Shown piece after piece: positions 2,470 through 61,516 of a DNA stretch of 64,000 nt. The notes beneath the pieces were generated by a model, which was not told the DNA's origin, made no database searches, and saw only the letters and a program-made list of their open reading frames with translations. The stretch is from Patescibacteria group bacterium (GTDB lineage Bacteria > Patescibacteriota > Minisyncoccia > Moranbacterales > UBA1568), in assembly GCA_038078615.1 (NCBI GenBank), contig JBBTWT010000007.1:1060-65059 (forward strand), in the 5' to 3' direction. Each line of letters opens with the position of its first letter. Position 1 is the first letter of the stretch. Both the position numbers and the translations under genes were made by a program.

Positions 2470-2472
2470 CCG

Positions 2473-2504
2473 ACACATCCGTATGCGGTCGCACACAGAT
2501 GTGT
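2473..2504. repeat. Palindromic repeat, copy 1 of 3 (ACACATC...GATGTGT family)
   Basis: ACACATCCGTATGCGGTCGCACACAGATGTGT is a 32-nt near-perfect palindrome starting 4 nt after the nrdD stop. Related copies lie at 50150-50187 and 50828-50863. Confidence 0.85.
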
Positions 2505-2520
2505 AGGAGGAGTTTTGGCG

Positions 2521-4604: not shown

Positions 4605-5315
4605 ATGAAACCTAAAACTGTGTTACCAGCATTCTGGTTGGCCGTCGACGGGTCCAGGCCTGAAAACGTGCGGAAGAAGCTCGAATTGATCGCGGGAGTT
4701 GAAGGTGACTATGGCCTGAAACTCAACCTGGACCTTGTTTTACGATCCTGGTCCATGATCCGCGAAGTGCAGGACTCTACCGGCAGGCCGTTGTTCGTCG
4801 ATACCAAGATGAACAATGGCAGAAGGACGATGACGGAGATCATTCATATGCTGGCCGATGAGGGTGTGGCGATGACAAACGCCTATGCTTTGGCGGATCA
4901 CCTGCTCGAAGAGCCGGCACGTGCGGCGGACAATGCCGGGATGATGTTTCTCGGTCTGACAGTAATGACGCACCACACGGACGCGTACTGCAGGAAATTC
5001 CATGGTCGTACCATGGCCGAAACCGTGCGCCTGTTGGCTGAAGTTGCTCTCAAGCGTGGTTGTGACGGCTATATCCTCCCGGGGACGTGCCTCCATGCCG
5101 TGGCTGATCTGGGAGGGGTGAAGTTCAATCCCGCTGTTCGCCCTCCTTGGGTAGCCGACAAGAAGGCCAACCTGCAGGAACAAGTGGTAACGATACAAGA
5201 GGCTTTCGAAAACGGAGCCCACCTCGTTTCCTGCGGTAGCCCGGTGTTTAATGCGGAAAATCCTCGGGATGCGCTCAAGCAGATCCTGTCCGAAGTTCGT
5301 CAGGCCAAGAGTTGA
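4605..5315 (+). CDS. Orotidine-5'-phosphate decarboxylase superfamily protein (divergent)
   Basis: LAVD, LKLNLDL, FVDTKMNNG (DxKxxD with the last Asp replaced by Asn), GLTVMTH, QEQVVTIQEA. The usual VVGR phosphate-binding Arg is not evident. Confidence 0.6.
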   Translation: MKPKTVLPAFWLAVDGSRPENVRKKLELIAGVEGDYGLKLNLDLVLRSWSMIREVQDSTGRPLFVDTKMNNGRRTMTEIIHMLADEGVAMTNAYALADHLLEEPARAADNAGMMFLGLTVMTHHTDAYCRKFHGRTMAETVRLLAEVALKRGCDGYILPGTCLHAVADLGGVKFNPAVRPPWVADKKANLQEQVVTIQEAFENGAHLVSCGSPVFNAENPRDALKQILSEVRQAKS

Positions 5316-5332: not shown

Positions 5333-5383
5333 CGAAGGTGCTCACTGTCGCGTAACGCGCGACAGCAGAGGCCTTCTTTTTTT
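5333..5383 (+). terminator. Intrinsic terminator after the pyrF-like gene
   Basis: GAAGG...CTGTCGCG-taacg-CGCGACAG...CCTTC long hairpin (core 5345-5365) followed by T7 (5377-5383). Confidence 0.6.
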
Positions 5384-5483
5384 ACCTGATTTTTCTTGCG
5401 TACGCGGAGAAACCTCCCCAGTCCCTCTGTACACATTTTTCCACGACCGTGGAGAAATGTGTACAAATATAAAATGACGCGTG

Positions 5484-8776: not shown

Positions 8777-8848
8777 ACAGAGCCTTGATATTTTCGCAGT
8801 ATCACATAACTGACGGTCGTCATTTATGTGATACGTCCGCAGTAGCAG

Positions 8849-8878
8849 CAGTCTCACCGTGGCGGGACTGTTTTTTTT
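8849..8878 (+). terminator. Weak hairpin plus T8, possible terminator after the helicase
   Basis: CAGTC..GACTG is followed by TTTTTTTT (8871-8878). A 10-bp hairpin TATCACATAA..TTATGTGATA lies just upstream. Confidence 0.4.
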
Positions 8879-8913
8879 CAGCTATACTGTGAGAATCGTC
8901 AGTTGTACGTACT

Positions 8914-15947: not shown

Positions 15948-16646
15948 ATGACAGAGAACATCCGTGAGCGTTTTATAGTTACCGCAGACGATTACGGCAT
16001 CCGCCAGACAGCGGAGCCGATTTTGCGCTTGGCGCACGAGGGGAAGATCGATCGCGTGGCGGTGCTGATCCACTATGTCTCCGCCGAGCAGGCGGAAGCG
16101 CTCAAGGCGACGGGAGTGAAGATCGACCTGCATCTGGAACTGATCGGGCTTCTGAAAAGCGGGGAGAAGATGCATGAGAGCGTTCTCGTGCGGAGCGTCA
16201 ATTTCATATTCCGCCGTATCGCCGGGCTGGCGACCGCGAAGAAAGTCGAGCAGGAATGGAGAGACCAGATCGTGCGCTTCCGCGATATCTTCGGCCGTCT
16301 GCCCGACGGGCTCAATTCCCATGAACATCTGCACTGTTTCCCGCCGTTTTTCAGGGTGTTCACGAAACTGGCGGAAGAATACCGCATATCGTATATCCGT
16401 TTCGGGAAGAAAGGCATGCTCACCGGCCTGCATGGGGCGTTCATCGGCGAGATTCTCGCTTTCTTCTGGAAGCGGACGCATCCCGCCTATGTCAAGACGG
16501 CGCTCGCGACATCCGATTATCTCGTGAGCCTGGATTGGCTCGCGGATTTCAAGTCTTTCAGCGAACGGCTGCCCTCCGGCAGTATCGAGCTGGTCGTGCA
16601 TCTGGAGCGCGAGGAGGATTATCGGATCATACTCGAGTATTTCTGA
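15948..16646 (+). CDS. ChbG/HpnK (YdjC-like) carbohydrate deacetylase family protein
   Basis: [15 protein letters not shown] and LNSHEHLH match the YdjC-family metal-site pattern. Confidence 0.7.
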
Positions 16647-16667
16647 CGGATCTCCCGTTTTTTTGTC

Positions 16668-16696
16668 TTGATATGCCTGCCTTTCGATGGTATACT
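16668..16696 (+). promoter_or_regulatory. Promoter for the first uvrA paralog
   Basis: TTGATA (16668-16673), 17-nt spacer, TGgTATACT (16688-16696). Confidence 0.55.
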
Positions 16697-16717
16697 GCCT
16701 TTCCTATATTTTCGCAT

Positions 16718-19318
<2,601 letters not shown>

Positions 19319-22245: not shown

Positions 22246-25044
22246 ATGCCAGAGAAAAAGCCGATGATCGAGATTCGCGGCGCGCGGGTCAACAACCTGA
22301 AGAACGTGGACGTCGATATCCCTCGTGATGCTTTGGTGGTGGTGACCGGCTTGTCCGGTTCGGGCAAATCCTCATTAGCTTTCGATACTCTTTTCGCGGA
22401 AGCGAATCGGCGCTATGTCGAGTCGCTTTCTTCGTATGCGCGCAATTTTCTCGACGGATTCGACAAGCCGGACGTCGACGCGATCCACAACCTTTCGCCC
22501 GCCATCTCCATCGACCAGAAGAGCGTGTCGAGGAGCCCGCGTTCGACGGTCGGGACGATGACGGAGATCTATGATTACCTGCGTATCCTGTTCGCCAAGC
22601 TCGGGATTCCGCATTGTCCATCGTGCGGCAAGCGTCTCACAAGAAAGAGCGTGCGCGAGATACTCGAAGAGCTCCTCCTCCTGCCCGACAAGACGCCGCT
22701 CGCATTCATCGCGTATGGCAAGGCGCTCGCCGACAAGACCGAACGCGAGGCGCTCTCACTCATCAATGCCTGGGGATACGTACGGGTCCTGTTTCACGGG
22801 GAGCTCTCGCCGATCGCCGAAGCGATAGGACGCGCGTCCGCGACGGAAATCTCGGATATCGGCGTGGTCGTCGACCGTCTCGAGATCGACCTGTCCCGTC
22901 CCGACAAGGAGCGTATCCTCGATTCGCTCCAGACCGCGTTCCGCGTCGGCCAGGGGACGCTCACGCTCCGCATCAATGGTACCGGTGAAGAACGTATCTA
23001 CAACGAGGAATACCGCTGTGAAGAATGCCATATCGGGCTGCCGGAGTTCACGCCGAGCTGCTTTTCCTTCAACAGTCCCGAGGGCGCGTGCGAGAAGTGC
23101 GCGGGCCTTGGCGTGACGCTCGAATTCGATCCGGAACTCGTCATCCCCAACAAGAACCTGTCGCTCGCCGAAGGGGCGATCCGTCCGTGGAGCAAGATGA
23201 ACAGCGACCGCCACAGCGGCAACGGGCCGATGCAGTGGCTGCGCGACGCGAGCCGGCGGCACAAATTCTCGCTCGATATTCCGGTGAAGAAGCTCGCCGG
23301 TAAGCATTTCTCCCTCATACTGCACGGGGAAGGCGGCACGGAGCAGGATGCCTTTCCCGGCATCATCGCGCTTCTGGAGAAGAAATACCGCGAGACGAAA
23401 TCGGATCATCTGCGTACGGACATCGAGGCGTATATGCTGACCAAGCTCTGCCCTCTCTGCGAGGGGAAGCGCCTGAAGGCGGCATCGCTCGCCGTGAAGA
23501 TAGAGGGACTTTCTATCGATGATCTCGTGAAGCAGAGCGTCGATATGTTCCTGGAGAGGATGAAGCCGCTGCGGGAAAAATGCCTGAAGACGGGCGAGAA
23601 GAAGATGATCGATCCCTTGTTCCGCGAGATGGAGATGCGGCTCTCCGCCGTGGAAAAAGTGGGACTCGGATATCTCGAGCTCTCGCGCGGCGCCGATACG
23701 CTGTCCGGAGGAGAGGCGCAGCGTATCCGCCTGTCAGTGCAGATGAAATCTGGGCTTTCCGGCATCATCTATGTCCTCGACGAGCCGTCGATCGGGCTGC
23801 ACAGCCGCGATACGGAACGCCTGATCAACGCGCTCGAGGATCTGCGGAAAGCGAACAATTCTCTCGTGATCGTCGAGCATGACGTGGCGATCATGCGCCG
23901 GGCGGACTATATCATCGATCTGGGTCCGGGCGCCGGCAGCGAGGGCGGCGAGATCATCTTCGCGGGCACGCCGGACAAGCTGATGCGCTCGAAGCTCCTG
24001 ACCGGCGAATACCTCTCCGGCAAACGCAGCATATCCGAGAAGAAGAAGGCGCGTCGTCTGAGCGAAGAGGCGATCACTGTTTTCGGCGCGACGGAACACA
24101 ATCTGAAGAATGTCGACGTGAAGATCCCGCTCGGGATGCTCGTGGCGGTTTCCGGCGTCTCGGGATCGGGCAAATCGAGCCTGGTGCATGACATCCTGTC
24201 CCGGGCGCTGTCGAAATATTTCTATCATGCCAAGGCCGAGCCGGGCGCGCACAGGAAGATCGAGGGGATCTCGAATATAGACAAGGTGATCGCCGTGACG
24301 CAGGATCCGATCGGACGGACGCCGCGTTCGAACGCGGCGACGTATACCGGCATCTTCAGCCTGATCCGCGACCTGTTCGCGGCGACGACGGAAGCCGAGC
24401 GCGAGAAATATTCCGCCAGTCATTTCAGCTTCAATATGCGCGGCGGCCGCTGCGAGGCATGCCAGGGCGGCGGATTGAAGAAGATCGAGATGTATCTCCT
24501 GCCGGATGTCTACGTACCGTGCGAAGTCTGTCAGGGGACGAGATACAACGCGAAGACGCTCTCGATCGAATATCGCGGAATGAATATCGCGGCCGTGCTC
24601 CGCATGACGGTCACGGAAGCGCGCCGCTTCTTCCTGGATCAGCCGATGATCGAAGAGAAGCTGCGCGTGCTCGAGGAAGTCGGTCTCGGATATCTGGTAC
24701 TCGGACAGAGCGCGACCAACCTCTCCGGAGGAGAGGCGCAGCGTATCAAGCTCGCGACAGAACTGGCACGAAAATCGACCGGCAAGACGCTCTATATCCT
24801 CGACGAGCCGACGATCGGCCTGCATTTCGAGGATGTGCGGCGCCTGCTCGAGGTGCTCGAAGCGCTGACGGACAAAGGCAACAGCGTGCTCGTCGTGGAG
24901 CACAATCTCGATGTCATCCGCTCGGCGGATTGGGTGCTGGAGCTCGGTCCGGACGGCGGCGCCAAGGGCGGGGAGCTCATCTTCTCCGGACCGCCGGACA
25001 AATTGAAAAACTGCAAGCGTTCATTCACGGCGAAATATCTATAA
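22246..25044 (+). CDS. uvrA: Excinuclease ABC subunit A (full-length type)
   Basis: [20 protein letters not shown] twice, [11 protein letters not shown], Zn modules, and an insertion-domain-length segment between CAGLG and CPLCEGKRL. Confidence 0.95.
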
Positions 25045-25084
25045 TTTTTAAAAGAGGGTTTTTTGTCTTAGAATCGAAAGCATC

Positions 25085-25149
25085 CCGGAAGTTTTCAGAT
25101 GAACCGTGCCGAAGAGGTTTCGCCACATGGTTCCCTAAAAAACTTCCGG
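25085..25149. repeat. Rod-like hairpin element, short copy (core shared with 47539-47655)
   Basis: CCGGAAGTTTT ... AAAACTTCCGG 11-bp outer stem. The inner 39-40 nt AGATGAACCGTGCCGAAGAGGTTTCGCCACATGGTTCCCT differs at 2 positions from 47561-47600. Confidence 0.85.
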
Positions 25150-25182
25150 AATCCTTTTGACACTGCGCTACTATCACAACAT

Positions 25183-26103
25183 ATGTCCTATCTTCTGGGA
25201 AAAAATATAGTGGTGACGGTGACGTATTATGACGTGTTCGATATGCCGCTCACGGTTCTCGAGATATGGAAGCATCTGATGGCGCAGGACTCCGGAGACG
25301 GGCATGGGGAGCCGTGTACGCTCGGCGATGTCGCCAGGTTCCTGGCAGCGGGGACTCTTGACGCGAAAATCGGGGGGAAAAACGGATTCTATTTCCTGCG
25401 CGGACGGGAGGATCTCGTGGCGCAGCGTATCCGGGCGGAGAAGCTTTCCGTCGCGAAGCTCAAACGGATGCGGCGTCTGGCGCGGCTCCTCGCGTATGTC
25501 CCGTATCTGCGGATGCTCGGCGCCACGGGAAGCCTCGCCATGAAGCATGGCGAACGGGAAAGCGACTGGGATATGTTCGTCGTCCTGCGCTCGGGCAAGA
25601 TCTGGACCGGACGGACGCTTCTGACCGGGTTCCTCCATCTCATAGGCAAGCGGCGGCATGGCGACCGGGTGCGGGATCGCGCCTGTCTCAATTATTTCGT
25701 CACGGACGACAATCTGGAAATCGGGACCAAGGACATGTTTTCCGCGCATGAGTACCGTTTCTTCATCCCGCTGCTCAACTTCAGGCTGTTCCAGGTATTC
25801 GAGCTGAAGAATCGCTGGATACGGGACTATCGCTCCAATTTCGCACTGACGACGCTGCCGAGCCTGTGGACCGTACCGGAGAGCCTGTGGGCGCGGCGTA
25901 TGCAGGGCGCGCTGGAAAGGGTTCTCGGGTTTCTCGATATCGAACGGTGGCTCGCGTCCTGGCAGAAGGAGAAGATCCGCCGTAACCCGAAAACGGCCCT
26001 GGAGGGAAGCCTGATCGAAGCGCATGATCGCGCACTGATTTTCCTGCCGCATCCGCAGGGACCGCGCGTCTTTGAGAAATTCAAGGAGCGCCTGAGCGCC
26101 TGA
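25183..26103 (+). CDS. Nucleotidyltransferase-fold (Pol-beta-like) domain protein, hypothetical
   Basis: GATGSLAMKHGERESDWDMFVV resembles the GS..(n)..D.D NTase motif. Start moved to ATG 25183 because 25099-25149 is the repeat element. Confidence 0.55.
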   Translation: MSYLLGKNIVVTVTYYDVFDMPLTVLEIWKHLMAQDSGDGHGEPCTLGDVARFLAAGTLDAKIGGKNGFYFLRGREDLVAQRIRAEKLSVAKLKRMRRLARLLAYVPYLRMLGATGSLAMKHGERESDWDMFVVLRSGKIWTGRTLLTGFLHLIGKRRHGDRVRDRACLNYFVTDDNLEIGTKDMFSAHEYRFFIPLLNFRLFQVFELKNRWIRDYRSNFALTTLPSLWTVPESLWARRMQGALERVLGFLDIERWLASWQKEKIRRNPKTALEGSLIEAHDRALIFLPHPQGPRVFEKFKERLSA

Positions 26104-36247: not shown

Positions 36248-36283
36248 ACCTTACTTTTTATGCAATTGCATAAAAAGTAAGGT
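36248..36283. repeat. Perfect AT-rich palindrome, copy 1 of 2
   Basis: ac-CTTACTTTTTATGCAATTGCATAAAAAGTAAG-gt. The identical 32-nt core recurs at 61482-61513. Confidence 0.95.
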
Positions 36284-41747: not shown

Positions 41748-41935
41748 ACGGCAGCAACCGCCGCCAGATCGACAAAAACAAAAACAAAAAACAATCGTAT
41801 GCAGGAACGACGCCATCACGTCAGAATGATGTCTCCCGGGGGACACAGGCACGGTCTCGAGCCCGTTCGCAACGCTTTGCCAGCCCGAAAAGCTACGCTT
41901 AACGTTGCTGGCGGGCGTAGCAATGCGGGCAGGCT
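41748..41935 (+). repeat. Leader-ATG-two-hairpin cassette, copy B (homologous to 2521-2700)
   Basis: ACGGCAGCAAC, (ACAAAA)n...AAAAACAATCG, ATG 41799, then hairpins 41874-41893 and 41893-41920. Compensatory differences relative to copy A. Confidence 0.75.
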
Positions 41936-42218
41936 CGCGGGCTCGGTGCACGTGTTCGTGCTGATTGTTTTTCTGATCGCGTTCGTGGCGGGCGGAGGTT
42001 ATCTGTATTCCGTCAATCGTAGCGCGGTGCAGGGATATCATATGCGGACGCTGGAGAAGGAGATCGACAAACTCAAGCAGAATAACGCGGAGCTCAGGAT
42101 CGCCGAGGCGGATCTGCGGTCGCTCTATCGCATCGAGACCGCGGAAGAAGAGCTCGGCATGCAGAAGCTCGACACTATCATCTATCTCGAGGAACATGGA
42201 CCGATAGCTCTGCGGTAG
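41799..42218 (+). CDS. ftsL: Cell division protein FtsL-like (N-terminus encoded by the cassette)
   Basis: TM segment VFVLIVFLIAFVAGGGYLY followed by coiled-coil LEKEIDKLKQNNAELRIAEADL. Lies between rsmH and ftsI. The true start could be later (ATG 41826/41829 or GTG 41947). Confidence 0.6.
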   Translation: MQERRHHVRMMSPGGHRHGLEPVRNALPARKATLNVAGGRSNAGRLAGSVHVFVLIVFLIAFVAGGGYLYSVNRSAVQGYHMRTLEKEIDKLKQNNAELRIAEADLRSLYRIETAEEELGMQKLDTIIYLEEHGPIALR

Positions 42219-46979: not shown

Positions 46980-47534
46980 ATGAATGTCATCAAAACAGCC
47001 TTAGATGGAGTGATGATCATCGAGCCGGACGTATTCGCGGACGAGCGCGGGTTTTTTATGGAGGCGTTCGAGGAAAAACGGTATCAACGGGCATTGGGTC
47101 TGTCAGAACACTTCGTACAGGATAATCTATCACTGTCGAAAAAGGGTGTGCTGCGCGGCCTGCACTATCAAGCGCCGCCCTATGGACAGGGGAAACTCAT
47201 CTCCGTGCTCTCGGGTAGCGTGCTCGACGTGGCGGTGGATATCCGCCATGGTTCGCCGACGTTCGGCCAGCATACCACAATAGAACTTTCCGGCGAGAAT
47301 CATCGACAGTTGTTCGTGTCGGCGGGATTCGCGCACGGGTTCGTCGTGCTCTCCGACTCGGCGCTGTTCGCGTACAAATGCACCAACGTGTATTCGCAGG
47401 AGCATGATCGCAGCATCCTCTGGAACGATCCGGCACTCGGCATCGACTGGGGCATAGCCGATCCGATCGTCTCGGAGAAGGATCAGCGGCATCCGCTGCT
47501 TGCGGACATCCCGCAGGAATATCACTTTTCATGA
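46980..47534 (+). CDS. rfbC: dTDP-4-dehydrorhamnose 3,5-epimerase
   Basis: DERGFF.E, RGLHYQ, and the GFAHGF cupin pattern. Confidence 0.9.
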   Translation: MNVIKTALDGVMIIEPDVFADERGFFMEAFEEKRYQRALGLSEHFVQDNLSLSKKGVLRGLHYQAPPYGQGKLISVLSGSVLDVAVDIRHGSPTFGQHTTIELSGENHRQLFVSAGFAHGFVVLSDSALFAYKCTNVYSQEHDRSILWNDPALGIDWGIADPIVSEKDQRHPLLADIPQEYHFS

Positions 47535-47538
47535 TTAT

Positions 47539-47655
47539 AGAAAAGATTTCAAAAGTTTTTAGATGAACCGCGCCGAAGCGGTTTCGCCACATGGTTCCCT
47601 GCCCGAAGTGCTACATCGTGGCAGGCGGGCCTAAAAAACTTTTGAAATCTTTTCT
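47539..47655. repeat. Rod-like hairpin (MITE-like) element, long copy
   Basis: 23/24-bp terminal inverted repeats: AGAAAAGATTTCAAAAGTTTTTAG with CTAAAAAACTTTTGAAATCTTTTCT. The inner core is shared with 25098-25136. Carries an extra hairpin CTGCC..GGCAG. Confidence 0.9.
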
Positions 47656-47690
47656 GGAAGCTGTCTTTATCTTTAGTGACCTATCTCTTT

Positions 47691-48668
47691 ATGAAACTAT
47701 TAGTTACAGGCGGAGCCGGTTTCATCGGTTCCAACTTCATACATCATATCCTTACGGCATATCCGGAATATCAGGTGACCAATCTGGACGCCTTGACGTA
47801 CGCGGGGAATCTGGAAAATCTGAAAATATGGGAACATGATGCGCGCCACCGTTTCGTGAAGGGCGGCGTGACAGACAAGGAGCTCGTGGATGGTCTCGTC
47901 GCGGCGTGCGATATCGTGGTGCATTTCGCGGCGGAGTCCCACGTAGATCGCTCGATTATGGATCCGAGCGCTTTCGTGGATACCAATATCAGAGGAACGT
48001 ACGTGTTGCTTGAAGCGGCGCGCAAACACGGCAGGCGTTTCCATCATATCTCGACGGACGAGGTATTCGGTGCGCTCGGTCCGGATGATGCACCGTTTGA
48101 CGAGGAGACAGCGTATGACCCGCGTAGTCCCTACAGCGCGTCGAAAGCGGCGTCGGACCATCTGGCGCGCGCGTATTTCCATACCTATGGTCTGCCGGTC
48201 ACGATTTCCAACTGCTCCAACAATTATGGGCCATACCATCTGCCGGAGAAACTGATTCCGCTTGCAATCACGAATCTTATCGAAGGAAAGAAAGTGCCGG
48301 TCTATGGCGATGGTCTGCAGGTGCGTGACTGGCTCTACGTTGAGGATCATTGTAGGGCGATCGATCTCATCATCCATCAGGGGCAACTCGGCGAGACCTA
48401 CTGCGTCGGCGGGAACGGTGAGCGGGAGAATACCTGGATCGTGAAAAAACTGCTGGCAATGCTCGGCAAAGATGAGAGAATGATCGAATATGTGAAGGAT
48501 CGCCCCGGCCACGACCGTCGCTATGCCATCAATTTTTCAAAAATTCAGCAGGAGCTCGGCTGGCAGCCAACCGTGACTTTGGAAGAGGGTTTGCAAAAAA
48601 CGGTGAAGTGGTTCCAAGACAACAAATCCTGGTGGAAGAATGCCCGCCAGAAACGCTATCACGCCTAG
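47691..48668 (+). CDS. rfbB: dTDP-glucose 4,6-dehydratase
   Basis: VTGGAGFIGSNF, YSASKAASDHL, and the NYGPYHLPEKLIP motif. Confidence 0.95.
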   Translation: MKLLVTGGAGFIGSNFIHHILTAYPEYQVTNLDALTYAGNLENLKIWEHDARHRFVKGGVTDKELVDGLVAACDIVVHFAAESHVDRSIMDPSAFVDTNIRGTYVLLEAARKHGRRFHHISTDEVFGALGPDDAPFDEETAYDPRSPYSASKAASDHLARAYFHTYGLPVTISNCSNNYGPYHLPEKLIPLAITNLIEGKKVPVYGDGLQVRDWLYVEDHCRAIDLIIHQGQLGETYCVGGNGERENTWIVKKLLAMLGKDERMIEYVKDRPGHDRRYAINFSKIQQELGWQPTVTLEEGLQKTVKWFQDNKSWWKNARQKRYHA

Positions 48669-49421: not shown

Positions 49422-50080
49422 AAATAACGAAATTCGGGCACTGTTGTCTGCTTATTGAAGTGAAGGAGCTTCGCATCCTGACCGATCCGGGAAATTATAA
49501 CGTGACACCAGATGTCGGGGATATCGATATTATTCTGATCACGCACGAGCACCCGGATCATCTGCACATCGATTCTTTGAAAGTGGTACTAGCAAAAAAT
49601 CCGGAGGCGAAAGTCATCTCGCATAGGGGAGTTGGCAGGATCCTCGATGAAGCCGGTATCACATATACGCTCATTTCCGATGGTGAAGAAAAGCAGATCA
49701 AAGATGTCAGTATCGAAAGCTGTGGGACCGAACACGCCTGTATTCATCATGATCTCCCGGCTCTTATGGTACAAAACACGGGATTCTACATCGACAAAAC
49801 GTTTTTCTATCCCGGCGATTCTTTCCATAATCCGCACAAAGACATTACTATCCTCGCTCTTCCCGTTTCCGGCCCTTGGATGAAAATTTCAGAGGCGGTC
49901 GAATATGCCAAAGCGATCAAACCAAAAGCGGTGTTCCCCGTACACGACGGCATGCTCCGCCAAGATCATCGCCTCGGCCCTACTCGCCGCGTCCCCACGG
50001 CCATTCTCGAGCCCCTCGGCATCAAATACATCGACATGACCGAAGGATCAGTACAGGACTTTTCCAGTTTTCTGGCGTGA
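49418..50080 (+). CDS. MBL-fold metallo-hydrolase
   Basis: ILITHEHPDHL (HxHxDH) motif and the later H and D ligand pattern. Confidence 0.8.
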   Translation: MKITKFGHCCLLIEVKELRILTDPGNYNVTPDVGDIDIILITHEHPDHLHIDSLKVVLAKNPEAKVISHRGVGRILDEAGITYTLISDGEEKQIKDVSIESCGTEHACIHHDLPALMVQNTGFYIDKTFFYPGDSFHNPHKDITILALPVSGPWMKISEAVEYAKAIKPKAVFPVHDGMLRQDHRLGPTRRVPTAILEPLGIKYIDMTEGSVQDFSSFLA

Positions 50081-50149
50081 CATTCAGCGCGATGTTCTTC
50101 AGGAGGACGTTTGTGGGATGATCATCGTGTATATTGCTACATATCTACA

Positions 50150-50187
50150 CCTACACATCTATGTGCGACCGCACAGAGATGTGTAGG
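50150..50187. repeat. Palindromic repeat, copy 2 of 3
   Basis: CCTACACATCT-at-GTGCG-ac-CGCAC-ag-AGATGTGTAGG, ending 10 nt upstream of ATG 50198. Confidence 0.9.
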
Positions 50188-50197
50188 TCACAAAGGC

Positions 50198-50806
50198 ATG
50201 GAAGAAAAAACAAAAGCAACCAAACAAAATGGAATAACAAGGAAAATTCCCTATGGCCTTATTGGCAGGGTATTTCTAGGCTCCATAGCGGCAGTGGGGA
50301 TGGTGAGTCTCGCGGTGGCTGCACCGAACGCGATCCAGATAGCGAAGTTGTTTCAGGGACGCAGGCAGAGCTACTTTCGTCGCTATCAGGCTCCGTCGTA
50401 TGTGCGAAAAACCTTGAAAAGCCTGCATCGTCGTGGAATGGTGAGAATTTCAGAGCGGCAGGGCGAAGCGAAAGTGTATCTGACGGACAAGGGCAGGCGT
50501 GAGTTACTCAAATATAAACTCCTGGAAAAACGTTTGGAGAAGCGTCATTGGGATAAGAAATGGCACATCATCATATTTGACATTGAGGAGAAGCGTCGCT
50601 CGGCGCGCAATTGTATTCGGAAAGATATGCAATCATTTGGTTTCGCGAAACTTCAAGAAAGTGTCTGGGTGTATCCGTACGAATGTGAGGAAGCTATCAC
50701 GCTGCTGAAGACGCAGTACAAGATGGGGAAGGAACTCGTCTATATCGTTGCGGGAGACATCGAGAATGACGGATGGCTGCGGAAAAAATTCAAGCTGGAA
50801 AACTGA
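50198..50806 (+). CDS. PaaX-C / Cas2-like fold wHTH protein with N-terminal TM (putative regulator)
   Basis: TM segment, then LKSLHRRGMVRISERQGEAKVYLTDKGR (winged helix), then WDKKWHIIIFDIEEKRRSARNCIRKDMQSFGFAKLQESVWVYPY (PaaX C-domain / Cas2-like pattern). Confidence 0.6.
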   Translation: MEEKTKATKQNGITRKIPYGLIGRVFLGSIAAVGMVSLAVAAPNAIQIAKLFQGRRQSYFRRYQAPSYVRKTLKSLHRRGMVRISERQGEAKVYLTDKGRRELLKYKLLEKRLEKRHWDKKWHIIIFDIEEKRRSARNCIRKDMQSFGFAKLQESVWVYPYECEEAITLLKTQYKMGKELVYIVAGDIENDGWLRKKFKLEN

Positions 50807-50827
50807 AAATATATGTTATTCTTGTGC

Positions 50828-50863
50828 CTACACATCTATGTGCGGTCGCATATAGATGTGTAG
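50828..50863. repeat. Palindromic repeat, copy 3 of 3
   Basis: CTACACATCTATGTGCGGTCGCATATAGATGTGTAG, starting 22 nt after the stop of the PaaX-like gene. Confidence 0.9.
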
Positions 50864-50967
50864 ATGCTGATACCGATGAGTGAGAAGATCGGCAGAATGT
50901 TCGGAGCAAGTGGGAGAGAAGTATGATATCTTGATATTGCGAAATATTTCCCAGCAGCTTCTTGTTT

Positions 50968-50976
50968 TGGTACACT
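50968..50976 (+). promoter_or_regulatory. Extended -10 promoter for rfbD
   Basis: TGgTACACT about 30 nt upstream of ATG 51006. Confidence 0.4.
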
Positions 50977-51005
50977 AGGGAGACGAACAGTAAAGGTATA
51001 TCACT

Positions 51006-51932
51006 ATGGAACAAAAGAAAGTATTGATACTGGGGGGCAGGGGGATGCTCGGGCAGGAGCTCGTGCGGGTTTATGGCGAGGATGTCGGATATGCGGTTGC
51101 CGGATGGGATCGCGATGATATCGATGTGACGGATTTTGCGGTGGCGGAGAAAAAGATCAGGGAATATGCCCCGGACATCATCATCAACGCCGTCGCGTAC
51201 AATGCCGTGGACACGTGCGAAGAAAGTGATGAGGAGTATGCGAAAGCGCTGCTGCTCAACGCCGATGTGCCGAAATTTCTCGCGACGCTTGCCAAGGATA
51301 TGGACGCGATATTCGTCCACTATTCGTCGGACCACGTGTTCGACGGAGCCTTGGAAGAAAACAAAATGAAAACGGGCTGCTGTGGCGGGGGGTGTTGCGG
51401 GGCCAAGGCCTCTGCCGTAGGGTATGACGAGACATCGGTACCCAATCCCATTACGCGCTATGGCGAGAGCAAGCTGGCAGGGGAAAGAGCGGTGCAGGCA
51501 TCCGGCGGAAAATTCTATCTCATCCGACTCTCGAAACTCTTCGGCAAGCCAGCGGTGTCGGAAGCGGGGAAGAGAAGTTTTTTTGAAGTGATGCTGGAGA
51601 AAGGAAAGGCGGGGGGCGCGGTGAACGTCGTAGATGGTGAGACGAGCTGTTTCACGTATGCGCCGGATCTGGTGCAGGCGACGAAGGCGCTGATACAGGA
51701 TGGCGCTTCGTATGGCATCTATCATCTGGCCAATGAGGGAGCCGTGACATGGTACGAGGCGGCCGTAGAACTCTTCAAGATAGCCAAAATGGAGGTGTCC
51801 GTGAAGCCGGTTGATGCGGATGCATTCCAGCGCTCTGCCAAGAGACCGAAAAACTCTACTTTGCTCAACACGAAACGTCCCGCTTTGCGTCTTTACACGG
51901 AAGCGTTGAAAGAATTTTTGAAGAATGTTTGA
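51006..51932 (+). CDS. rfbD: dTDP-4-dehydrorhamnose reductase
   Basis: ILGGRGMLG, YSSDHVFDG...YGESKLAGE and RPKNSTLL. About 20-aa Cys/Gly-rich insertion at 51348-51409. Confidence 0.85.
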   Translation: MEQKKVLILGGRGMLGQELVRVYGEDVGYAVAGWDRDDIDVTDFAVAEKKIREYAPDIIINAVAYNAVDTCEESDEEYAKALLLNADVPKFLATLAKDMDAIFVHYSSDHVFDGALEENKMKTGCCGGGCCGAKASAVGYDETSVPNPITRYGESKLAGERAVQASGGKFYLIRLSKLFGKPAVSEAGKRSFFEVMLEKGKAGGAVNVVDGETSCFTYAPDLVQATKALIQDGASYGIYHLANEGAVTWYEAAVELFKIAKMEVSVKPVDADAFQRSAKRPKNSTLLNTKRPALRLYTEALKEFLKNV

Positions 51933-61478: not shown

Positions 61479-61516
61479 AGTCTTACTTTTTATGCAATTG
61501 CATAAAAAGTAAGACT
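61479..61516. repeat. Perfect AT-rich palindrome, copy 2 of 2
   Basis: agt-CTTACTTTTTATGCAATTGCATAAAAAGTAAG-act. The flanks differ from copy 1 but are still self-complementary. Confidence 0.95.

Follow-up and report, generated by a model that had tools for sequence, protein, structure and literature searches.

Patescibacteria, also known as the candidate phyla radiation (CPR), have tiny genomes with few recognisable regulators, and we know of no genetic systems for them. Looping repressors with flanking operators are represented by lambda CI, with OL and OR around cI-rexAB, by LacI with O1, O2 and O3, and by GalR with OE and OI, and in structures of Cas1-Cas2 the Cas2 dimer lays a duplex of ~23 bp across its surface. 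Repetitive extragenic palindromes (REPs) go with a Y1 (HUH) gene for a REP-associated tyrosine transposase (RAYT), and are dispersed in tens to hundreds of copies per genome; such REP/RAYT systems, called REPtrons, were reportedly described by Nunvar in 2010, by Bertels and Rainey in 2011 and by Ton-Hoang in 2012. In this study, a gene for a small PaaX-like regulator, enclosed by two near-identical palindromes, was analysed in a stretch of 64,000 nucleotides (nt) from a Patescibacteria group bacterium (contig JBBTWT010000007.1 of assembly GCA_038078615.1; hereafter the window). The palindromes are probably the cognate duplex-DNA operator pair of this mini-PaaX regulator, accompanied by a few orphan targets. 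The best-matching described relative, the PaaX repressor of Escherichia coli, represses its own promoter and has the operator TGATTC(N27)GAATCA (PMC9493321).

In the regulator protein, an N-terminal hydrophobic helix is followed by a winged helix-turn-helix (wHTH; helix 66-78, wing 82-95), a long helix and a Cas2-like domain (residues 122-185). It matched Pfam PaaX_M ('PaaX central Cas2-like domain', E 4.7e-20) and a winged-helix family (F-93 WHD). The E. coli PaaX repressor 8a39 was its top match in PDB both by profile (E 0.002) and by Foldseek (E 3e-5, TMq 0.50, 188 columns). The two proteins are alike in having an N-terminal wHTH followed by a Cas2-like middle (dimerisation) domain. The putative sites of the regulator, with 7-bp arms placed 20 bp apart, match the long PaaX operator with its widely spaced inverted half-sites in architecture. 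However, the regulator is not PaaX proper. It is only ~200 aa long and ends with the Cas2-like domain, with no Pfam match to the PaaX_C effector (aryl-CoA) domain; it scored 43.6 bits against TIGR02277 (PaaX equivalog), below the cut-off of 264.55; and its neighbours are a metallo-beta-lactamase (MBL)-fold hydrolase gene and the dTDP-rhamnose genes rmlC, rmlB and rmlD, not a paa (phenylacetate) cluster. Further differences from PaaX are the extra N-terminal hydrophobic helix, the Cas2 Asp, which the regulator keeps and which is absent from E. coli PaaX in the alignment, an added invariant centre CGRYCG in the site, and a second putative operator right after the stop codon in most sampled family members. 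We found no paper describing this regulator family or its flanking sites.

The relation to Cas2 was evident in both sequence and fold. The regulator has a ferredoxin-like beta-alpha-beta-beta-alpha-beta domain carrying the Cas2 signature FDI...LQxSVWVYP, which is invariant in the family, including Asp128. Pfam CRISPR_Cas2 matched at 2e-4, and TIGR01573 (Cas2), with its match confined to the N-terminal half, reached 24.8 bits (cut-off 24.5). In the AlphaFold2 model (pLDDT 73.8) the ferredoxin-like Cas2-type domain was confident, and Cas2 structures took ranks 2 to 4 in the Foldseek search and recurred through the match list. The 20-bp spacer between the outer arms is also comparable to the ~23-bp duplex spanned by the Cas2 dimer. 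In contrast to Cas2, the domain is fused to a wHTH, and the 36-38-nt palindromes are two isolated copies ~650 bp apart rather than a repeat array. No CRISPR repeat array was found in the window, the PADLOC defence-system search returned only the Cas2-like domain matches, and Cas1 was absent among the called genes of L001-L011, the window or metagenome loci not having been searched specifically for cas1. Cas2-like matches in CPR genomes need not indicate CRISPR, which is a correction for their annotation. Separately, the N-terminal helix is conserved, hydrophobic and Gly/Ala-rich (ILGxxxxAGxxxxAxxAP; 50255-50340, residues ~20-47) and resembles a transmembrane segment, with a weak profile match to a Kv-channel transmembrane-like segment; membrane tethering through this helix is possible.

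The palindrome had been noticed in a sequence-only reading of the window, which described three copies, one on each side of the regulator gene and one beside nrdD, and gave their distances to the regulator ATG (50198), the regulator stop (50806) and the nrdD stop (2469); the copies and the distances were all confirmed. The degenerate 32-nt pattern matched 2473-2504, 50153-50184 and 50830-50861, each on both strands, as follows from their palindromic nature, compared with 0.00 matches expected from dinucleotide shuffles. With their flanks included, the gene-flanking sites are 38-nt near-perfect palindromes, CCTACACAT...ATGTGTAGG, at 50150-50187 and 50827-50863 (the start of the latter being 50827/50828), and the nrdD-side site reads CCGACACAT...GTGTAGG at 2470-2507. 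The centre of the downstream site, GT, is flipped relative to the AC of the upstream site, and the same flip is found at the same position in the homologous locus L005.

Two copies were found beyond these three. The generalised pattern ACACAT-N7-CGRYCG-N7-ATGTGT had four matches in the window against 0.01 expected, adding a fourth full copy at 5431-5462, in which the outer arms ACACAT/ATGTGT and the centre are identical to those of the other copies and the middle differs but is still complementary. An orthologue of this fourth site lies upstream of the same C39-peptidase gene in L092/L093, at 7091. The other addition is a 36-nt variant at 8799-8834, which may belong to another paralogue because its arms are shifted by 1 nt. 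In total, the 64-kb window holds 4-5 copies. Hidden paralogues beside the palindromes at 5446 and 8816 were considered and rejected, as a hidden Markov model (HMM) search over all six-frame open reading frames (ORFs) gave one family member in the window; the genes near these two palindromes encode an OMP decarboxylase, a C39 peptidase, a DEAD helicase and a VTT protein. In an exact-pattern scan of 185,579 GTDB representative genomes, the window-type pattern occurred at one locus only, L004, so the palindrome family is not a widespread fixed sequence.

The arrangement of site, gene and site was then compared across relatives. Three other contigs encode the identical regulator protein and carry identical palindromes. 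Close homologues numbered at least 110, the named sources being Moranbacteria, Magasanikbacteria or Patescibacteria. In every close homologue locus fetched (L005, L006, L008 and L010), the regulator gene lies between two near-identical quasi-palindromes (Table 1), the upstream one ending from a few to ~35 nt before the ATG and the downstream one starting ~20-40 nt past the stop; the protein identities to the window regulator were 74% for L005, 63% for L006/L007, 64% for L008/L009 and 52% for L010/L011. The sites of L005 and the window agree at 36 of 38 positions, and the surrounding intergenic DNA is not alignable. The order of MBL gene, regulator and rmlD is kept over 61-74% protein identity, indicating a long vertical residence of the regulator gene, and L010/L011 lie in a genomic context unrelated to that of the window.

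In a metagenome scan with the family alignment, relatives numbered at least 589. The scan returned 80 loci, with protein identities of 34-46%, and 73 of these had at least 140 nt on both flanks. A motif-type quasi-palindrome of ~36 nt was present on both flanks in 55 of these 73 loci and on at least one flank in 67, compared with a background of 1.2% for a motif-type palindrome in random 205-nt intervals of the same loci. Consistently, 102 motif-type palindromes were counted in the 54 kb adjoining family genes vs. 13 in the 607 kb elsewhere, an 89-fold difference in density, and orphan motif-type sites in the related loci amounted to ~1 per 47 kb. These results demonstrate that the association of the palindromes with this gene family, raised in the sequence-only reading, extends to relatives. 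A paralogue at 469-1071 of L004 has its own site pair with different arms, ATCATAATTCCACGGCCGTGGAATTATGAT, and a partial family member in L017 likewise has a site following it. Within 378-1111 of L004, a Moraniibacteriota metagenome-assembled genome, this wHTH/Cas2-like paralogue sits between the palindromes TCATATCATAATTCCACGGCCGTGGAATTATGATATGA and TCCTATCATAATTCCACGGCCGTGGAATTATGATAGGA, just upstream of the sigma-factor/nrdD region, and a similar orphan was seen at 12226 of L010.

In the window, L005, L006, L008 and L010, the downstream centre lies 39-58 nt from the regulator stop and 42-161 nt from the next start; it tracks the regulator stop, not the start of the next gene, and so belongs to the regulator gene. 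Family-wide, the medians were ~30 nt from the upstream site to the ATG and ~34 nt from the stop to the downstream centre, with 579-796 bp between the centres of paired sites. The centre was the same in 35 of 48 pairs, that is, the two copies are usually direct and not inverted. Homologues of the neighbouring MBL gene also led to four sampled loci without the regulator gene, three of which keep the MBL...rmlD neighbourhood. A single motif-type site was found just after the MBL gene in L095 (complete genome CP064975.1; centre 5723) and L100 (~4715-4750), and no site in L098 or in L099, the latter having a clean 38-nt MBL-rmlD junction. The solo sites fit a deletion between direct repeats, the excision of a cassette, or operators of regulators encoded elsewhere.

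To describe the anatomy of the site, 96 centre-aligned sites from 48 non-redundant loci were combined in a symmetry profile. The C at -3 was invariant, G occupied +3 in 95 of the 96 sites, and the centre followed C[G/T][A/G][C/T][C/A]G family-wide. Mirror complementarity was 0.89-0.99 at +/-2-4, fell to 0.59-0.74 at +/-5-10, rose again to 0.85-0.95 at +/-11-17, and decayed beyond +/-18. Rather than one continuous stem, the site consists of a dyad centre and two half-sites of 7 bp with 20 bp between them. Among 273 stem mismatches, 56 were G.T, 44 A.C and 173 others, showing no wobble excess and no strand bias. The arms are specific to genome and paralogue. When the Cas2-like domain was controlled for, the distance between outer arms correlated with the distance between wHTH regions (partial r 0.20, Mantel p ~0.001), and the reverse partial correlation was 0.07. 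In asymmetric palindromes, both copies of a locus match in direct orientation, for example at 38/40 positions direct vs. 28/40 inverted in L010. The shared asymmetry in direct orientation rules out that the 5' and 3' copies pair with each other, be it for mRNA circularisation or as an RNase III substrate, and this possibility was rejected. Family-wide, -10-like hexamers were ~4-fold enriched between the centre and +35 of the upstream sites.

Among the interpretations offered in the sequence-only reading, an operator pair for autoregulation by the wHTH protein thus appears best supported, through the family-wide flanking pair, the co-variation of arms and protein, and the PaaX-type symmetry profile. 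The fold of the protein, the symmetry profile, and the specific association of sites and genes are observations of this study; binding and repression, and looping or a roadblock for the second site, are inferred. A regulator dimer would bind each site of ~36-38 bp, its two wHTH domains reading the 7-bp outer arms (+/-11 to 17; here TACACAT/ATGTGTA) and the invariant centre C[G/T]RY[C/A]G lying on the dyad beneath the Cas2-like dimer. The upstream site, ending ~10 nt before the ATG, would overlap the zone of the -10 element and the transcription start site (TSS), so that a dimer bound there would repress transcription of the regulator gene itself. Located ~20 nt past the stop, the second site may cooperate with the upstream one through a loop of ~650 bp enclosing the gene, or may alternatively act as a roadblock that insulates the gene within an array of co-directional genes. 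Orphan sites with the same arms, in the spacer between nrdD-L and nrdD-S and upstream of the C39-peptidase gene, would make up a small regulon. As in the looping repressors, two or more cognate palindromic sites, here putative operators, lie hundreds of bp apart, and by analogy the paired sites could be bridged by an oligomerised repressor, giving tighter autoregulation; unlike in those systems, the pair encloses exactly the regulator's own ORF, and this arrangement is conserved across a large family.

Several points weigh against the operator pair. A consensus scan found no sigma-70-type promoter near the window site, so that the overlap of operator and promoter is only statistical and family-wide. 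The clade of the window (window, L004 and L005) has palindromes with near-perfect symmetry at all 17 positions, whose middles differ yet stay self-complementary, as in 5431-5462 vs. 50153-50184. Between paired copies, 15 compensated double differences were counted in the outer arms vs. 4.4 double changes of any kind expected. Such compensation is what a hairpin or cruciform constraint would produce, although two-fold binding combined with template-switch correction of quasi-palindromes could be an alternative source. In addition, simple autorepression does not explain the purpose of the downstream site, and a plain repressor does not need the N-terminal hydrophobic helix or the Cas2 signature with Asp128.

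In one alternative, site, gene and site would form a selfish or mobile cassette, a minimal insertion sequence or REPtron-like unit whose wHTH recognises the terminal palindromes and whose Cas2-like domain nicks or recombines them, with the orphan and solo palindromes (nrdD spacer, L095 and L100) being footprints or MITE-like (miniature inverted-repeat transposable element) derivatives. We consider this unlikely, and equally improbable its fuller form, in which the cassette is an autonomous element, a non-HUH analogue of RAYT/REP and a free-living relative of the Cas2 adaptation module. The cassette ends proposed in the sequence-only reading stand in so far as the sites hug both ends of the ORF, the downstream one following the regulator stop and not the next start, and solo sites remain at the same spot in two regulator-less genomes, with none in L099 and L098. 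That each paralogue has its own pair, that L010 lies in an unrelated context, that the compensated double changes preserve the self-complementarity of each site, and that the Cas2 motif is invariant also fit a cassette. Against the proposal stands the synteny across 61-74% identity with its long vertical residence; further, the 64-kb window has one family member and no identical extra copies, no target-site duplications were seen, the family had no phage matches and on plasmids only true PaaX was matched, the copies are usually direct and not inverted, and the solo sites could just as well result from a deletion between 38-bp direct repeats, or be operators whose regulators are encoded elsewhere. 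REPtrons do resemble this locus in that a gene characteristically has imperfect palindromes of a class of its own on both sides, paralogues have different classes, and extra copies occur in intergenic regions just after genes. They differ in that the gene flanked here encodes wHTH and Cas2-like domains and no Y1/HUH transposase (no Pfam match to Y1_Tnp), that there is a handful of copies per 64 kb and not hundreds, and that the copies are mostly direct, with bipartite symmetry and no evidence of dissemination. In a weaker variant, the Cas2-like dimer would be a DNA 'ruler' that reads a fixed 20-bp spacer and the invariant CGRYCG centre, which would link the handling of prespacers by Cas2 to sequence-specific regulators.

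The remaining alternatives take the palindromes as hairpins. As RNA or single-strand structures at both ends of the regulator mRNA, they would be stabilisers, processing sites, or factor-dependent terminators or insulators, and might be bound by the RRM-like Cas2 domain; we regard this as quite unlikely. The two window copies are indeed very stable (-15.8 and -13.2 kcal/mol, z -8 and -7), every copy lies just after a stop codon on the + strand, and compensated changes are found in the window clade and within loci. However, hairpin stability is not conserved: the energy collapses to -5.8 and -4.5 kcal/mol at the L010 and L008 sites, and the nrdD-side copy is weak (-7.8 kcal/mol, z -1.9). The poor family-wide complementarity of the +/-5-10 arm positions, the lack of G.U wobble enrichment or strand bias (56 vs. 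44 of 273 mismatches) and the direct-orientation asymmetries likewise speak against an RNA stem. No T-run follows the palindromes, whose tails are CACAAAGG and ATGCTGAT, and a consensus scan of 49900-51100 gave no terminator-like site, although canonical terminators with a GC stem and a T-run exist apart from the palindromes, at ~5343-5385 and 8855-8880. No meaningful Rfam family was matched in a gathering-threshold scan of the window or in E-value scans of 2400-2760 and 47480-47700. REP-like elements had also been suggested in the sequence-only reading; as generic intergenic hairpins, REP-like or terminator-like, the palindromes would bracket the gene by coincidence. Other palindromes do follow stop codons in the window, such as CTTACTTTTTATGCAATTGCATAAAAAGTAAG at 36250 and 61482, but this explanation is very improbable and is contradicted by the 89-fold concentration at family genes, the 55 of 73 bracketed loci against a 1.2% background, the paralogue-specific arms and the low copy number in the window, with the window-type pattern at a single locus of the GTDB representatives, in addition to the variable stability and the separate terminators.

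In kind, the system would be a repressor with its operators. What is new is a Cas2-like-domain regulator family of CPR bacteria, whose sites have an invariant centre and arms that follow a paralogue-specific code, and whose genes are enclosed by two sites of their own. This uncharacterised family is large, with 941 cluster representatives at 50% identity at E<=1e-30, 3,546 at 1e-10 and 6,384 at 1e-3. With a copy of its own site at either end of every gene, the family reveals its cognate DNA sites directly in genome sequences, and hundreds of protein/site pairs form a ready-made data set on protein-DNA recognition. A search for orphan sites could then be used to predict regulons in uncultured bacteria, and the regulator gene enclosed by its own putative operators provides a testable case.

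Table 1. Regulator gene, palindromic sites and nrdD reading frames of the window, with the flanking sites of four homologous loci.
Feature	Position	Strand	Sequence	Remark
Mini-PaaX-like protein gene, 202 aa	50198..50806	+		Pfam PaaX_M, F-93 WHD; AlphaFold2 model; Foldseek
Upstream cognate site (putative operator)	50150..50187	.	CCTACACATCTATGTGCGACCGCACAGAGATGTGTAGG	ends 10 nt before ATG at 50198
Downstream cognate site (putative operator)	50827..50863	.	CCTACACATCTATGTGCGGTCGCATATAGATGTGTAG	begins 21 nt past stop (stop ends 50806)
Orphan cognate site	2470..2507	.	CCGACACATCCGTATGCGGTCGCACACAGATGTGTAGG	between nrdD large ORF and small glycyl-radical ORF
Fourth site	5428..5465 (core 5431-5462)	.	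TGTACACATTTTTCCACGACCGTGGAGAAATGTGTACA	between intrinsic terminator and C39-peptidase-like gene (Pfam)
36-nt variant palindrome	8799..8834	.	GTATCACATAACTGACGGTCGTCATTTATGTGATAC	after DEAD-box helicase gene, before canonical terminator (hairpin survey)
NrdD body, 705 aa	352-2469	+		Pfam NRDD positions 2-530
NrdD small C-terminal glycyl-radical ORF, 92 aa	2580..2858	+		Pfam NRDD positions 531-562
L005 flanking site			CCTACACATCTGTGTGCGACCGCACACAGATGTGTAGG	
L006 flanking site			AACACATCTCAGTGCGGTCGCACTCACTCGTGTT	
L008 flanking site			TAACTCATCTCTTAACGGTCGTGGATAGATGAGTTA	
L010 flanking site			GCACTCGATTTCTCGCGGCCGTGGTAAAATGAGTGC	

The copy beside nrdD had been taken in the sequence-only reading to mark a premature stop of this gene and to link the palindromes with its disruption. 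The stop is not premature, as the two ORFs together cover NRDD positions 2-562 (Table 1); the small one holds the glycyl-radical loop RVMGYHRPV and is followed by nrdG. The best 120 of 1,137 small-ORF homologues were all free-standing proteins of 55-83 aa from Patescibacteria, the named ones coming from Moranbacteria, Magasanikbacteria, Gracilibacteria and other Patescibacteria, and a two-ORF nrdD was also found in L004, L092, L093 and L094. In the syntenic L092, L093 and L094, the gene is split without any palindrome at the junction. The split is thus ancient and widespread, and the link between palindrome and disruption found no support; with free-standing small ORFs and palindrome-free split loci, the palindrome was rejected as the cause of the split. 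In these organisms nrdD is a normal conserved two-part gene, and should be annotated as a two-ORF gene rather than a pseudogene. We found no paper on a split NrdD of Patescibacteria.

The orphan site begins 3-4 nt past the TAA of the large ORF (2467-2469) and 76 nt upstream of the small one. A cognate-type palindrome in this spacer is restricted to the window and L004, where it occupies the same place with the middle positions compensated in L004, indicating a later, lineage-specific addition to the spacer. The small NrdD ORF is a possible regulatory target of this site. Separately, two small genes that are otherwise unrelated share, in frame and close to the N-terminus, an 85-nt segment that is 79% identical between them, namely nrdD-S (2622-2706; ESVCDALPARKAALNAADGRSDASGRTR) and a 139-aa gene between mraW and a penicillin-binding protein (PBP) gene (41859-41943; EPVRNALPARKATLNVAGGRSNAGRLAG); since nrdD-S of L004 is without it, the segment is a recent in-frame insertion or a shared module.

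Other repeats of the window were seen along with the above. The 32-nt palindrome CTTACTTTTTATGCAATTGCATAAAAAGTAAG is perfect and unrelated to the sites of the regulator, and its two copies (36250-36281 and 61482-61513) are identical, one following a radical-SAM (MiaB-like) gene and one following murJ, with no neighbouring regulator gene seen. An intergenic repeat of 64 nt, 84% identical, lies at 25073-25160 and 47537-47655 inside larger inverted repeats, AGAAAAGATTTCAAAAGTTTTT ... AAAAACTTTTGAAATCTTTTCT. The genes downstream of it are ORF 25099-26103 and the rmlB-like gene, and it gave no credible Rfam match. Two uvrA-like paralogues of 927 and 932 aa, located 3 kb apart at 16535-19318 and 22246-25044, account for the majority of long direct repeats within the window.

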